Shown: positions 42 through 10,286, counted from the stretch's first letter. The stretch is DNA of 11,406 nt from a virus (IMGVR_UViG_2548877011_000002:1-11406); one strand, 5' to 3'. Notes: generated by a model from the letters alone, not told the origin. Program-made: numbers and translations.

Positions 42-338
42 TCAGAATTGCATATCAATTTGCTTAGAGTCCCCGGCGGCCACCGGGGATTTTTTCTTTG
101 TGATTTCATCAAGCGCATACTTAAAAGCTCTGCTAATCGGACTGATGTCTGATGCCATGCCAAAAGCACACAAGACCGAAGCTATAAACCTCCAGTCTGT
201 TCTGCTTATCTTCGATTCATGACAGCCAATCATCTTTGCCAGACCGCGCTGGGTAAGCGTTGACAGGTTGATGAGTAAATCAGTTTCAGCGCGATCAATT
301 TCTCGCTGTGATAGTTTGCTGTAACTTGTTTGTTCCAT
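42..338 (-). CDS. cII: CII-like transcriptional activator (lysogeny establishment)
   Basis: 98-aa ORF. C-terminus ..KKKSPVAAGDSKQIDMQF resembles lambda CII ..KKRPAATERSEQIQMEF as recalled; central HTH-like segment (LAKMIGCHESKISR); lies after cro on the same strand. Confidence 0.7.
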   Translation of the reverse strand: MEQTSYSKLSQREIDRAETDLLINLSTLTQRGLAKMIGCHESKISRTDWRFIASVLCAFGMASDISPISRAFKYALDEITKKKSPVAAGDSKQIDMQF

Positions 339-476: not shown

Positions 477-710
477 TTATGCAGCCGATGCTCTACGCGA
501 TACGAACACTAGGTTTTCCTTTTTCACAGGTTTATAACCCGTGAAATTACGAGTAGCTTCTTCGATTGCATTCGCTTTATCAGGGGAAGCTCTTCGAAAT
601 CCATATGCAATCTGGTCAAGATAGCCAACTGAAGTTTTCGCTAATGCGGCGAGTCGCTTCCATTCCTCACTAGAAGCCTCTTTTCGCCAGCGTAGTAGTT
701 CATTACTCAT
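477..710 (-). CDS. cro: Cro-like HTH regulator (YdaS/Cro-type)
   Basis: 77-aa ORF divergent from cI across an operator-rich intergenic region; HTH-like core LAKTSVGYLDQIAYGFRRASPDKANAIEEATR resembles YdaS/Cro-type proteins. Confidence 0.6.
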   Translation of the reverse strand: MSNELLRWRKEASSEEWKRLAALAKTSVGYLDQIAYGFRRASPDKANAIEEATRNFTGYKPVKKENLVFVSRRASAA

Positions 711-823
711 TAGTGCCTCCGTTTATCACACAGAACAACTTTACCATTTTGATAAATCATCCGCAATGTAAATTTATCATATTGCGTATTTATCCATTTG
801 CTAAATAGAGGGAAAATTGTGAG
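711..823. promoter_or_regulatory. oR region with divergent pR/pRM promoters and repeated operator motif
   Basis: Divergent cI/cro intergenic region containing TTTATCA at 722-728 and 773-779, TTTATCC at 789-795, and the inverted form GATAAA at 751-756; the 10-mer AATTTATCAT at 771-780 recurs in oL. Confidence 0.6.
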
Positions 824-1528
824 ATGGAAAACAAAGATATTCGCAAATCGAATCTGGCGTTTTTGCTAGATGAGCATAAAAAAATCGCGGGTAACACTAA
901 TGCAAGCTTTGCCGATAAGCTTGGGGTTAGCCCTTCTCAACTCACGCAAGTCTCCGGTGAAAAAAGCACTCGAAACATAGGGGATAAACTAGCAAGAAAA
1001 TTTGAAGCCGCGCTTGGGTTACCTAATGGGTGGCTTGATTTGGTACATGATGTAACACCAATTGCATCATGCTCAGATTCTTTAACTTTTGTCGGTCAGG
1101 TAAGAAAAGGGTTAGTGCGCGTGGTTGGTGAGGCAATTCTTGGTGTTGATGGTGCCATCGAGATGACCGAAGAGCGCGATGGGTGGCTCAAAATTTATAG
1201 CGATGATCCAGATGCCTTTGGTCTTCGTGTGAAAGGAGACAGCATGTGGCCCAGAATAAAATCAGGAGAATATGTACTCATTGAGCCTAACACCAAAGTA
1301 TTCCCGGGTGATGAGGTGTTTGTCAGAACTGTTGAAGGACACAACATGATCAAAGTTCTTGGCTATGACAGAGACGGAGAATACCAATTTACAAGCATCA
1401 ACCAGGACCACAGGCCAATAACGTTGCCTTATCATCAAGTAGCAAAGGTGGAGTATGTGGCTGGTATTCTGAAGCAATCTCGCCATCTGGATGACATCGA
1501 GGCAAGGGAGTGGCTGAAAAGTTCGTGA
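824..1528 (+). CDS. cI: CI-type prophage repressor (N-terminal HTH, C-terminal S24/LexA-like autopeptidase domain)
   Basis: 234-aa ORF; N-terminal HTH-like region (FADKLGVSPSQLTQV); C-terminal domain with a GDSMWP serine motif and a downstream lysine (MIKVLG) typical of LexA/CI self-cleaving repressors; divergent from cro. Confidence 0.9.
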   Translation: MENKDIRKSNLAFLLDEHKKIAGNTNASFADKLGVSPSQLTQVSGEKSTRNIGDKLARKFEAALGLPNGWLDLVHDVTPIASCSDSLTFVGQVRKGLVRVVGEAILGVDGAIEMTEERDGWLKIYSDDPDAFGLRVKGDSMWPRIKSGEYVLIEPNTKVFPGDEVFVRTVEGHNMIKVLGYDRDGEYQFTSINQDHRPITLPYHQVAKVEYVAGILKQSRHLDDIEAREWLKSS

Positions 1529-1610
1529 CTTCATCGTCACATAGCTGGTAACCAGTGGCCTGAAGAGACGTTTGGGTGATGTACATAGCATTTCTGGATA
1601 AAAATACAGA

Positions 1611-1652
1611 TTCCCTTTATGGGAAATGAATCTATAATTCCCAAAAAGGGAA
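1611..1652 (+). promoter_or_regulatory. Candidate promoter/operator for the toxin-antitoxin-chaperone cassette
   Basis: Two palindromes TTCCC-N5-GGGAA (1611-1625 and 1638-1652) flank a perfect TATAAT at 1633-1638; the toxin ATG is at 1665. Confidence 0.45.
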
Positions 1653-1664
1653 CAAAATCGGATT

Positions 1665-1952
1665 ATGAAGGTCTTAAACGTAGAGAAGCTTCACAGTTTT
1701 AGCCGGAAGCACAATCAGGCCAAGGGGGCTTTAGACTCTTGGTATGATGAAGTGATAAGAGAAAACTGGAAAACGACTCAAGACATACGGAATAGATTTA
1801 ATTCTGCCGACTTCCTTCCTAACAACAGGGTAATTTTTAATATAAAAGGCAATAACTATCGGCTCGTTGTCCAAGTTGTTTACCAGGCAGGAATGGTCAT
1901 AGTTGAAAGAGTTGGAACTCATGCAGAGTACGACAAGTGGAGGCTTAAATGA
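1665..1952 (+). CDS. higB: HigB-type toxin (RelE/ParE-fold mRNA interferase family)
   Basis: 95-aa ORF; C-terminal half FNIKGNNYRLVVQVVYQAGMVIVERVGTHAEYDKW parallels E. coli HigB (YgjN) ..FNVGGNELRVVAMVFF..CYIREVMTHKEYD as recalled; 4-nt ATGA overlap with the next ORF. Confidence 0.8.
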   Translation: MKVLNVEKLHSFSRKHNQAKGALDSWYDEVIRENWKTTQDIRNRFNSADFLPNNRVIFNIKGNNYRLVVQVVYQAGMVIVERVGTHAEYDKWRLK

Positions 1953-2605
1953 ATCGAACTAGCTGGCGCATCATTAAAAATAGTGAAGAGCATGCTGCAG
2001 CTATGGAAAGGCTCATTGAACTTGCGTCTAGTGATTTACAACCTGGAACTGAAGATTTTGATGAGTTTGAACTACTAGGCTTGCTTATCGAGCACTATGA
2101 GTCACGCGAGTTCCCTATGGACAAGCCAGATCCCATAGAAGCAATCAAGTTCCGTATGGATCAACAAGGCCTCTCTTATGCCGATATGAAACAATACATT
2201 GGCTCAGCATCTAAAGTATCTGAGGTCTTAAATCGTAAGCGTCCATTAAGTCTTTCAATGATCCGTAGACTACATGACGGACTTGGAATTCCTGCAGATA
2301 TCTTAATTCAAGATATGAGCGCAATTGAATGGAGCCTAGTTGACGCAGAGGAAGAAGAAACAGCCATGACTAGCGTCATTGCTCGGTGTGAGTCAGCCGT
2401 CACATCACCTTCTGCTTATTTCGCTGAAAAGGCTACAGAATCTTACTTTTCAAAAATGTTGTTCAGCGCAGTAAGGGGTAATGGCAAATGCAAAGAAAAA
2501 CGGAATGTTTTTTCTTTGATAAGTAACTTGTCATCAAGTTTCACAGCGGCTAGCAACCTGAATGACGAAATGACTTCTGACGGAAATTACTTATTATTAC
2601 CATGA
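1949..2605 (+). CDS. higA: HigA-type HTH antitoxin with a ~90-aa C-terminal extension (candidate chaperone-addiction region)
   Basis: 218-aa ORF; residues ~60-125 (PIEAIKFRMDQQGLSYADMKQYIGSASKVSEVLNRKRPLSLSMIRRLHDGLGIPADILI) parallel the E. coli HigA (YgjM) HTH region as recalled; it then continues ~90 aa beyond where HigA normally ends, Ser/Ala-rich; ATGA overlaps with both neighbours. Confidence 0.75.
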   Translation: MNRTSWRIIKNSEEHAAAMERLIELASSDLQPGTEDFDEFELLGLLIEHYESREFPMDKPDPIEAIKFRMDQQGLSYADMKQYIGSASKVSEVLNRKRPLSLSMIRRLHDGLGIPADILIQDMSAIEWSLVDAEEEETAMTSVIARCESAVTSPSAYFAEKATESYFSKMLFSAVRGNGKCKEKRNVFSLISNLSSSFTAASNLNDEMTSDGNYLLLP

Positions 2606-3006
2606 AAATTGAACTCATTAGCAAAAAAGTTGAACGCTTGGTTATGACACGGCTAGAAGGCGATTCAACAGCAAAAAAAGCCATAAAAACAACCGTTAAT
2701 CTAAATAATGAACTTTACACTAATGTGAAGGATTCAAAGCTATTTAGAGTGAGATATTTTGCCTCCGTAACTATTGAAGGCAGGCTTGAGATGGACATCA
2801 CATACGACTTTGACTTCCGGTCAGAAGATGATTTTTCTCATGAAATGGCAAAATCATATGAGGTAAGGTCCATTGCTCCCAATATGGCATATCCCTATAT
2901 AAAAACATATGCCGAGCAAATTATCCTCATGTCAAACCTTGGTAGGTTCACTCTGCCTTATTTTGATTTCTTGGCCAATCCCATGGAAACGAACAGTAAT
3001 AAGTGA
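2602..3006 (+). CDS. SecB-like chaperone (third component of the cassette)
   Basis: 134-aa ORF translationally coupled to the antitoxin; C-terminal PNMAYPYIKTYAEQIILMSNLGRF..LPYFDF resembles the SecB segment [28 protein letters not shown] as recalled. The similarity is remote and by eye only. Confidence 0.6.
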   Translation: MKIELISKKVERLVMTRLEGDSTAKKAIKTTVNLNNELYTNVKDSKLFRVRYFASVTIEGRLEMDITYDFDFRSEDDFSHEMAKSYEVRSIAPNMAYPYIKTYAEQIILMSNLGRFTLPYFDFLANPMETNSNK

Positions 3007-3014
3007 AATTCCCC

Positions 3015-3040
3015 ACCCGGCCTCAGCGCCGGGTTTTCTT
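3015..3040 (+). terminator. Intrinsic terminator closing the cI/cassette transcription unit
   Basis: ACCCGGC-ctcagc-GCCGGGT stem-loop followed by TTTCTTT, 9 nt after the stop codon of the chaperone ORF. Confidence 0.7.
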
Positions 3041-3144
3041 TGCCTCACGATCCCCACACCTAAAAACACATAACCAATTGTATTTGTTGAAAAATAAATA
3101 GATACAACTTGCTAAACAACGCAATCCAGATCTCCCTCAAATCT

Positions 3145-3265
3145 CTTTATTTATCCTGTCGAATTCCTACAACAAAATAAAACACCATAAGAATCAATAC
3201 GATATTTGAAAACCAAGAGAATTTATCATTTTGCTATTGCCATTAATTTATCATTCCGATAAAGT
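3145..3265 (+). promoter_or_regulatory. oL/pL region: repeated operator motif and candidate pL promoter
   Basis: AATTTATCATT at 3220-3230 and 3245-3255, TTTATCC at 3150-3156, GATAAA at 3258-3263; candidate -35 TTGCCA (3237-3242) and -10 TAAAGT (3260-3265) with 17-nt spacing, reading toward N. Confidence 0.5.
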
Positions 3266-3348: not shown

Positions 3349-3477
3349 AATAACCAAAGTGAACTTTGGGGTGAATGCAGAAGCTAACCTTCTCGGCGGA
3401 GGCGCTTTGCAATGATTACGCGACCGGAGTTAGTCGCCCGGCTGTATTCACCGCCAAAGTTCATCAGGAGGTTCCAT

Positions 3478-3861
3478 ATGACACGCAGAACTCAGTTCAA
3501 AGGCAATTCTCGTTCTCGTCGTCGTGAGCGTTTAAAGGCAAAGGCATTAGCTAACGGCGTACTGGCCCGCGAAGAAGCAATAAGTTCAGAAGTATTACAC
3601 CGCCCAACTCTAAGTAGAGCGCAGATTCAGGCTAAAGGTACTCACGAAACGCCTGATCGCATAGAAGACGCTAAGCCAATTAAGTTCATGGCACAGGACG
3701 TGATCTGGCAGCAGGAAGAATACAGACGCAATCTGGAGCGAGCGGCCATTGTGTACGCGAATGAGTTTGGACATAAGCAACCAGAAACTGGTGTATGTCT
3801 TCCAAATGTAGCTCTTTACGCGGCAGGCTACCGGAAATCCAAACAACTGACAGCAAGATGA
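3478..3861 (+). CDS. N: N-type transcription antiterminator (P22 gp24-like)
   Basis: Arginine-rich N-terminus (MTRRTQFKGNSRSRRRERLKAK); C-terminus ..VALYAAGYRKSKQLTAR close to P22 N ..VALYAAGHRKSKQITAR as recalled; AGGAGG at 3466-3471 before the ATG at 3478. The track start at 3412 is in frame but lacks an RBS. Confidence 0.8.
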   Translation: MTRRTQFKGNSRSRRRERLKAKALANGVLAREEAISSEVLHRPTLSRAQIQAKGTHETPDRIEDAKPIKFMAQDVIWQQEEYRRNLERAAIVYANEFGHKQPETGVCLPNVALYAAGYRKSKQLTAR

Positions 3862-9455: not shown

Positions 9456-10286
9456 ATGACCACTATTACCAAAGAACGTATTGAATTGTTCATTAAAAAT
9501 CCGCTTGAAAACGGGCTTACTCGTGGCGAACAAATGGAACTGGCACGAATTGCACTGGCATCACTGGAACGCGAACTGATTCGCCACGAGCATGCCAAAT
9601 GGTCTGACTCCACATTTGGCTGCGTTGGCCCCATTGGTCCACTGAAACACCTCTCAAAAGAGGCTCTGGAAGCCGCAGCCGAACCAGACGATCTCAGCGA
9701 GTGGGCTGATATGCATTTCCTGTTGTGGGATGCACAGCGCCGTGCTGGCATCAGCGATGCTGAAATTACCGCTGCTATGGAAGATAAATTGAAGATCAAC
9801 ATGGAGCGCCAGTGGCCTGAACCAAAAGATGGTGAGCCTCGCTTGCACATTAAAGAACCCGGCAACTCTCCGGTAATTCCGGATGGTTTATCCACGGTAT
9901 GCGCTGAGGCTTATCAGGTTGTAGGAGTTATGGCAGATGCGCTTGGTGTATTCGGTGATGCAGCAGTACAGAAAGTTCTGGATAACCTGTCACAGCAAAA
10001 ACTTGTTCACAGAGATGTGCTGCCGTTCTCGCTTCCGGCAACTCCGGATGGTTGGATAAGCTGTAGTGAGCGAATGCCTGAAATGGGAGAGCGACAATGC
10101 TATGTGTTAGCAGCTGACTTTAAAAACAACTACCCACCAAACATCCCCAACACTCAGGTCGGCGTATATGGCGACTGGTTTAATGATGGCAAGCCCACTT
10201 GGGATGACGGTGATGGCGAAGACCTGTATCTCAAAGAGGTAACCCACTGGATGCAGCTACCAGAACCGCCGCAGGAGGTGAAATGA
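9456..10286 (+). CDS. DUF550 (dATP/dGTP pyrophosphohydrolase-like) plus DUF551 two-domain prophage protein
   Basis: 276-aa ORF; N-terminal region (HEHAKWSDSTFGCVGPIGPLKHLSKEALEAAAEPDDLSEWADMHFLLWDAQRRAGISDAEI) matches the recalled DUF550 pattern; C-terminal DGWISCSERMPE..VLAADF.. matches the DUF551 pattern. Confidence 0.55.
   Translation: MTTITKERIELFIKNPLENGLTRGEQMELARIALASLERELIRHEHAKWSDSTFGCVGPIGPLKHLSKEALEAAAEPDDLSEWADMHFLLWDAQRRAGISDAEITAAMEDKLKINMERQWPEPKDGEPRLHIKEPGNSPVIPDGLSTVCAEAYQVVGVMADALGVFGDAAVQKVLDNLSQQKLVHRDVLPFSLPATPDGWISCSERMPEMGERQCYVLAADFKNNYPPNIPNTQVGVYGDWFNDGKPTWDDGDGEDLYLKEVTHWMQLPEPPQEVK

Follow-up and report, generated by a model that had tools for sequence, protein, structure and literature searches.

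A candidate self-repressed promoter with paired HigA operators upstream of the higB-higA-higC cassette of an Stx-type lambdoid prophage

What drives transcription of a toxin gene located directly downstream of the repressor gene of a lambdoid prophage: read-through from cI, a promoter of its own, or some combination of the two? The question is posed by the window analyzed here, an 11,406-nucleotide stretch of viral DNA (IMGVR_UViG_2548877011_000002:1-11406; all positions are counted from its first base), where two short palindromes bracket a perfect TATAAT immediately upstream of a higB-like gene.

By megablast, the window is an immunity region of the H-19B/BP-4795 type, as carried by Stx lambdoid phages: BP-4795 itself matches at 98.7% over 88% of the window, and ST2-8624 and the Stx1 prophage of O26:H11 11368 match as well. 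The positions of the OR and OL operators (Table 1) place the toxin gene and its two downstream partners between cI and oL/pL, which is the position of rex in lambda. A strong intrinsic terminator falls between the higC stop codon (3006) and the OL operators, closing the cI-higBAC transcription unit before oL/pL; on the + strand between the cI stop and higB (1528-1665), no terminator-like site was found. A small hairpin (GTGACttcatcGTCAC, 1525-1540), lacking a U-tract, overlaps the cI stop codon, and no counterpart of it is obvious in relatives with other repressors. The whole cassette recurs in complete E. coli genomes (88 of 5,426) and has relatives in Klebsiella, Salmonella, Serratia, and Citrobacter. 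Matches to part of 1500-3100 occur in 982 of the same 5,426 genomes, presumably representing the cI 3' end or the terminator/oL side.

Table 1. Features of the window, with positions, strand, and the basis or character of each assignment.
Feature	Position	Strand	Basis or remarks
cII	42-338	-	ORF list and Pfam
cro-like gene	477-710	-	ORF list and Pfam
OR, CI operators	722-805		TTTATCA-N3-TGATAAA type; mapped from annotated GenBank GQ499358
cI repressor, S24 peptidase type	824-1528	+	Pfam PF00717; annotated CI in ST2-8624 and BP-4795
A/T-rich block	1596-1610	+	GGATAAAAATACAGA; directly 5' of operator 1; left edge of conserved module
Operator 1 (distal), predicted	1611-1625	none	TTCCCtttatGGGAA; left arm TTCCCT at the -35 position
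-10 hexamer TATAAT, sigma-70 type, of the cassette's own promoter (predicted)	1633-1638	+	
Operator 2 (proximal), predicted	1638-1652	none	TTCCCaaaaaGGGAA; over the last -10 base and the predicted start
higB, RelE-like ribosome-dependent mRNA interferase toxin, 95 aa	1665-1952	+	Pfam PF09907, E 4.5e-30
higA, antitoxin and putative repressor, 218 aa	1949-2605	+	start overlaps higB stop (ATGA)
higC, SecB-like chaperone (predicted), 134 aa	2602-3006	+	start overlaps higA stop (ATGA)
Intrinsic terminator	3015-3041	+	7-bp stem with 6 GC pairs, then TTTCTTT
OL, CI operators	3190-3263		TTTATCA-N3-TGATAAA type; mapped from annotated GenBank GQ499358
N	3412-3861		ORF list and Pfam
bet and exo	farther along the window		ORF list and Pfam

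Direct reading of the sequence gives TTCCCTTTATGGGAA at 1611-1625 and TTCCCAAAAAGGGAA at 1638-1652, bearing out the first-pass annotation, which had described two palindromes with identical arms, 27 bp apart from start to start, and TATAAT at 1633-1638. The final T of the hexamer is also the first T of palindrome 2 (position 1638). The distance to the toxin gene, given in that annotation as 13 nt, needs a small correction: 12 nt separate palindrome 2 from the higB ATG at 1665. At the other side, 16 nt lie between the left arm of operator 1 (TTCCCT, 1611-1616) and TATAAT, so that the inverted repeats cover the -35 position and the -10/+1 region directly 5' of higB, the first gene. The A/T-rich block adjoining operator 1 may act as an UP-like element; it is kept in the Klebsiella, Salmonella, and Serratia copies of the region, and not in those of Citrobacter or in more distant ones.

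The pair is confirmed as a non-random feature of the window. A pattern search for TTCCC-N5-GGGAA returned no further sites in the 11.4 kb, even with one mismatch allowed; base composition predicts 0.009 exact sites per window; and two or more exact sites appeared in none of 3000 first-order Markov simulations, with any perfect 5-N5-5 inverted-repeat pair of shared arms 15-60 bp apart appearing in 4 of 3000. A second perfect 5-N5-5 pair with shared arms does exist elsewhere in the window: TCCGGtaattCCGGA (9869-9883) and TCCGGcaactCCGGA (10034-10048), 165 bp apart and both within the ORF at 9456-10286. One base of palindrome 2 sets the window apart from its E. coli copies, leaving the arms unaffected: position 1646, the fourth base of the spacer, is A here, where each of the 88 complete E. 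coli genomes carrying the region has G (best match 99.2% over 131 nt), as do all E. coli-type phage and viral copies examined, for which this A is the sole mismatch in 1601 nt.

Which protein might recognize such sites? The cassette itself supplies a candidate. The first-pass annotation had called the downstream gene higB-like and postulated a helix-turn-helix (HTH) antitoxin, and both identifications stand. HigB, in addition to its Pfam assignment, matches the PADLOC profile PD-Lambda-2_A at 2.5e-42 and the HigB structures 5YCL and 5IFG in the PDB, and is a HigB family toxin in RefSeq. For HigA, the nearest sequences and folds are those of E. coli K-12 and Shigella HigA (PDB 5IFG, 6KML, 5YCL): a phmmer search of the PDB gives 5YCL and 5IFG (E 5e-5), and the top folds for its AF2 model are E. 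coli HigA 6KML, 6KMQ, 6JQ4, and 5YCL, with 30% identity over about 121 residues. The Pfam HTH_3 match (E 3.6e-4) scores 20.9 bits, about 2 bits below the curated cut-off of 23. Confidence in the model is high for residues 1-124 (pLDDT about 90) and low for residues 125-218 (below 50), suggesting a folded toxin-binding and HTH domain in 1-124 and a disordered chaperone-addiction (ChAD) tail at about 122-218. Among 24 homologues the HTH is nearly invariant and the tail variable, and short homologues of about 130 aa lack the tail altogether. HigA is the only DNA-binding protein of the cassette, and the near-invariance of its HTH extends over homologues whose loci have the palindrome motif in common.

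A point missed in the first-pass annotation is that the cassette has three genes, toxin, antitoxin, and chaperone. The third ORF is labeled "hypothetical protein" in RefSeq and phage records, and its product has no sequence match in Pfam, NCBIfam, or the PDB (phmmer); the identification comes from structure prediction followed by a fold search. Its AF2 model (pLDDT 87) has as its best PDB match 5MTW (Foldseek TM 0.75, E 5e-7), the SecB-like chaperone Rv1957 of M. tuberculosis with a ChAD peptide, followed by the SecB proteins of E. coli and H. influenzae (1QYN, 1FX3). There is also a PADLOC match to PD-T4-9_C (CmdC) at 3e-11. The ATGA overlaps at both junctions imply a translationally coupled higB-higA-higC operon. 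A HigB-type toxin in first position is thus followed by what the models depict as a ChAD-tailed antitoxin and a protein of SecB fold, a combination which marks the cassette as a tripartite HigBAC defense system of the toxin-antitoxin-chaperone (TAC) kind.

HigBAC has already been published as a defense system. The cassette of E. coli NT1F31 has the same order of toxin, antitoxin, and chaperone genes, lies behind cI in a lambdoid prophage, and, through its sensing of the tail protein gpV, protects against lambda-vir and Bas25; its HigA has 218 aa, with the ChAD at 122-218, and depends on the HigC chaperone for stability and for toxin neutralization (Mets et al., bioRxiv 10.1101/2024.02.24.581848). 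All eight residues named for NT1F31 are present at the matching positions of the window proteins: the ChAD aromatic residues W128, F158, F188, and Y214 of HigA, and Y39, N41, R49, and D71 of HigC. By residue positions, lengths, and location, the window cassette appears to be the same as that of NT1F31, and the residue-level match makes chaperone-dependent neutralization and phage defense the expected properties here too. The NT1F31 work used PBAD and Ptet, with 150 bp of native upstream DNA kept in the Ptet construct (10.1101/2024.02.24.581848). Its subject is phage sensing (lambda gpV) and toxin neutralization rather than the native promoter and operators, which were not analyzed there, and neither "operator" nor "autoregulation" appears in its text (10.1101/2024.02.24.581848). 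The TAC locus of M. tuberculosis (Rv1955-Rv1957, HigB1-HigA1-SecB-like) likewise combines a toxin, a ChAD antitoxin, and a SecB-like chaperone, but differs in having a much shorter ChAD, a chaperone only 16-17% identical to HigC, a different toxin subfamily, a different promoter and operators, and no association with a prophage.

How closely are the palindromes tied to this cassette? Among 2.9 million viral contigs of IMG/VR, a scan for the exact pattern TTCCC-N5-GGGAA-N7-TATAATTCCC-N5-GGGAA returned 31 matches, representing eight sequence variants, and every one of the 31 sits 55 nt before a higB homologue (69-100% identity). The converse, protein-first search gave the same picture, since all 29 viral loci found by HigC similarity are on contigs of the 31-match list. 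When 16 upstream regions are aligned, no column of the regulatory stretch is invariant outside the four arms and TATAAT: the spacers, the inter-site stretch, the 5' leader, and the 7 nt before TATAAT all vary. Twelve of these 16 rows were retrieved by the DNA pattern itself, so the claim of invariance rests on the loci obtained independently of it (L085, L088, L091, L092, L008, L020, and L024) and on the HigC-first retrieval. The protein-retrieved rows agree with it, save for a single arm change in L008. The paired layout is seen in all seven of these independently retrieved loci, including three from marine gammaproteobacteria (L008, L020, L024; HigB identity 63-69%), where TATAAT again adjoins palindrome 2. 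Copies in Klebsiella, Salmonella, Serratia, and Citrobacter, found by exact protein look-up, have unchanged arms and TATAAT within varying spacers and flanks.

The cassette and its regulatory block also appear to travel together. The repressor gene ahead of them differs among copies, with at least four kinds represented, either S24-type cI variants or one of the Phage_CI_repr type (155 aa), and the Serratia copy lies in a context without an immunity region. Among the close copies, homology reaches no farther than about 70 nt upstream of palindrome 1, and some copies share only about 5 nt on that side. The same sites precede stand-alone chromosomal higBA pairs that have no repressor gene upstream.

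Beyond the close relatives, 80 distant loci from many phyla were fetched by HigA protein similarity, 60 of them with a usable higB start. A TCCC-N5-GGGA site lies within 120 nt upstream of higB in 47 of the 60, against a background of 2 matches in 320 kb; the loci include Gamma- and Betaproteobacteria, Bacteroidota, Anaerolineae, and Verrucomicrobiota. Site positions cluster at -26/-27 (the commonest) and -53/-54 from the start codon, which are the two positions occupied in the window, and the family operator consensus is TTCCCA-www-TGGGAA. The full pair, with 27+/-1 bp spacing and TATAAT adjoining the proximal site, occurs in about 14 of 65 non-redundant loci.

Three styles of promoter are represented in this wider set, and in each the distance between the sites and the promoter-like elements is fixed. 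Many single-site relatives, mostly in Betaproteobacteria (among them L018, L022, L026, L030, L031, L036, L047, L051, L060, and L067), have the palindrome aGTCCCAnnnTGGGACt as part of the spacer that separates a TTGnnn -35 from a TAnnnT -10. That -10 ends 6-8 nt short of the start codon, which implies a leaderless higB mRNA; the pattern holds for 14 of 25 such loci. The promoter layout of these betaproteobacterial loci thus differs from that of the window, while the operator is common to both. Loci of a Bacteroidota type (L027, L037, L052, L053, L054, L059, L062, L071, L074, and L077) have, judged by eye, the Bacteroidota -7 promoter box TAnnTTTG (e.g., TATCTTTG) about 10 nt after the palindrome, which suggests a change of promoter type around a retained operator.

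The closest characterized parallel is E. coli K-12 higBA (ygjNM), which shares a PF09907 HigB, a HigA with an N-terminal helical domain and a C-terminal HTH, and a toxin-first gene order. Its upstream region contains TTGCCAatcTGGCAA, with 16 nt from the left arm to TATCAT, and then TTGCCAattTGTCAA; written in full it runs CCGTTGCCAATCTGGCAACGG-atgt-TATCAT-a-TTGCCAATTTGTCAACGG, followed by 15 nt and the ATG. This is the arrangement of the window: a 15-bp repeat with its left arm as the -35, a 16-nt spacer, a -10, and a second repeat over +1. The K-12 repeats differ in being 29 rather than 27 bp apart, a shift of 2 bp in the layout, and in one base of the half-site (TTGCCA versus TTCCCA); identity to the window proteins is 41% in the HTH and 26% in HigB. 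The K-12 locus is chromosomal rather than prophage-borne, its HigA lacks a ChAD tail, and there is no chaperone gene. The K-12 start has been mapped by primer extension and the inverted repeats noted as putative binding sites; the promoter is active only in the absence of the locus, and HigA supplied in trans represses it (PMC2814082). At the Rts1 hig locus of P. vulgaris, operators O1 and O2 overlap the -35 and -10, either or both repress, and one HigA dimer binds per operator, non-cooperatively (PMC12266136). That system differs in operator sequence and in its HigB and HigA subfamilies, its HigA of about 100 aa matching only the HTH part of the model.

The reading favored here, with a probability of roughly 0.8, is that 1596-1664 is an autonomous, self-repressed promoter of higB-higA-higC, a phage-defense cassette at the rex position of Stx prophages. 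An autoregulated toxin-antitoxin promoter with two operators was also what the first-pass annotation had proposed, and the argument for it is a comparative one, drawn from the conserved arms and TATAAT, the cross-phyla motif, and the K-12 layout. RNA polymerase would use the perfect -10, with the weak hexamer at the -35 position doubling as the left arm of operator 1 and with possible help from the A/T-rich upstream tract; from promoter geometry, the start would fall near 1645-1646, inside operator 2. Each 15-bp palindrome (TTCCCA-N3-TGGGAA) would bind one HigA HTH dimer, alone or as a HigB-HigA complex: an occupied operator 1 would block the -35 region and an occupied operator 2 the -10/+1 region, and with both blocked the operon would be held at a low, self-limited level in the lysogen. 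If HigA is stable only with its ChAD tail held by HigC, then the promoter should also be de-repressed once HigA is lost, as when HigC is titrated by a phage tail protein. HigA binding, the start site, repression, and chaperone coupling are all predictions for the window locus.

Several details bear on how such a promoter might behave. A start near 1645 would leave about 20 nt of leader, in which the sole Shine-Dalgarno-like element is a weak and distant GGGA; this fits low translation of the toxin. A consensus promoter scan called no promoter at 1611-1652, because the -35 matches TTGACA at only 3 of 6 positions. The 27-bp spacing, about 2.6 helical turns, would have the two dimers bind to different helix faces, so that cooperative binding is not obvious. 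A leaderless promoter past site 2 (CAAAAT at 1653-1658, with TCTATA as -35), resembling the single-site betaproteobacterial layout, was considered and judged unlikely, since the CAAAAT stretch is not kept in close relatives and TATAAT is invariant.

With no terminator between cI and higB, pRM read-through probably adds to expression. Could it instead be the main source of higBAC mRNA, with the HigA-bound palindromes serving chiefly as a roadblock or insulator against read-in from cI (pRM/pRE)? The uninterrupted passage from the cI stop (1528) to higB and the weak -35 would both fit such a role, as would the example of lambda, where the rex genes at the corresponding position are co-transcribed with cI. 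It is nevertheless improbable as the principal function: it leaves the invariant TATAAT unexplained, the same sites stand before chromosomal higBA pairs lacking any upstream repressor gene, at fixed distance from promoter-like elements, and an obvious Shine-Dalgarno sequence just after site 2 in some relatives fits a start at that site. A roadblock role and a self-repressed promoter are not mutually exclusive and can coexist. The independence from pRM read-through claimed in the first-pass annotation therefore holds in one respect, that the module is self-contained and portable, and is weakened in another by the missing terminator.

Given the location directly downstream of cI, within an immunity region, the sites might be bound by some protein other than HigA, either phage CI/Cro or a host regulator, but this is very unlikely. 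With unrelated repressors upstream, and in many phyla, the motif still tracks the cassette; it occurs nowhere else in the window; and no factor other than the HigA HTH invariably accompanies it. Operators for CI/Cro specifically are excluded, since TTCCC-N5-GGGAA is unrelated to the TTTATCA-N3-TGATAAA 17-mers of OR and OL and the motif follows the cassette rather than the repressor.

Also very unlikely is a role for the palindromes as RNA hairpins, whether in terminating or attenuating the cI transcript or in stabilizing the mRNA. Each can fold into a 5-bp hairpin (-6.6 and -5.8 kcal/mol), and there is a weak terminator-like call on the minus strand at 1625-1611; against this, the stems are only 5 bp and are followed on the + strand by ATGAATC and CAAAATC rather than a U-tract, a start near 1645 would leave hairpin 2 partly untranscribed, and no Rfam family was matched (best E-value 0.21, far under the gathering score). 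Neither palindrome, on the transcribed strand, has the G+C-rich stem and U-tract of an intrinsic terminator. Across relatives, moreover, the arm sequences are kept without compensatory changes while the loops vary, a signature of sequence-specific protein recognition and not of RNA pairing.

A chance pair of short palindromes in A/T-rich intergenic DNA can be dismissed: at least two matches do turn up in 12 of 200 window shuffles if one mismatch is allowed, but the exact pair appears in none of the 3000 simulations, and chance would account neither for conservation across phyla nor for the 31/31 and 29/29 associations.

If the promoter is self-repressed as proposed, the cassette differs in its control from the genes whose place it occupies. 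Lambda rexAB, also located between cI and oL/pL and with a defense role in the lysogen, depends on pRM, plus pLIT for rexB; its proteins are unrelated to those of HigBAC, and it has no autoregulated promoter of the antitoxin type. A closer likeness in protein terms is to PD-lambda-2, whose A and B profiles are matched by HigB and the N-terminal 125 residues of HigA (2.5e-42 and 3.8e-50 by PADLOC; window 1665-2330). PD-lambda-2B joins its HigA-like domain to a peptidase, and the third gene of that system is of a P4-antitoxin-like rather than a SecB-like kind (Vassallo et al., 2022, PMC9519451). One toxin/HTH module has evidently been combined with different third components.

A further, tentative idea, which may well prove wrong, is that through these operators higBAC transcription reads out chaperone availability, and that a shared operator code lets co-resident cassettes repress one another. 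A phage tail protein titrating HigC would lead to degradation of HigA, de-repression of the promoter, and a burst of toxin synthesis; if true, this would add a transcriptional feed-forward layer atop the published post-translational trigger. The HTH and operator are near-invariant across diverged ChAD tails, chaperones, and PD-lambda-2 relatives, so that co-resident cassettes could share an operator code, and cross-repression of the "shared operator, private chaperone" kind would, if real, amount to a second immunity system among prophages.

Two antitoxin operators placed over the -35 and -10 are the textbook design for HigA and other type II toxin-antitoxin systems, and the understanding of their regulation is unchanged by the present analysis, which would not surprise a specialist. 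The operator sequence and its conservation across phyla seem undescribed in the searchable literature: a search for the sequence gave only unrelated primer-like matches, and a preprint on Stx-phage regulatory regions (10.1101/2021.11.24.469858) does not mention the cassette. What is provided is a native control region for a phage-defense cassette of medically important Stx prophages, along with an operator code, TTCCCA-N3-TGGGAA, that appears valid for a whole HigA subfamily across bacterial phyla and that could be used in promoter annotation, in predicting cross-regulation between cassettes, and in constructing reporters of HigBAC triggering.
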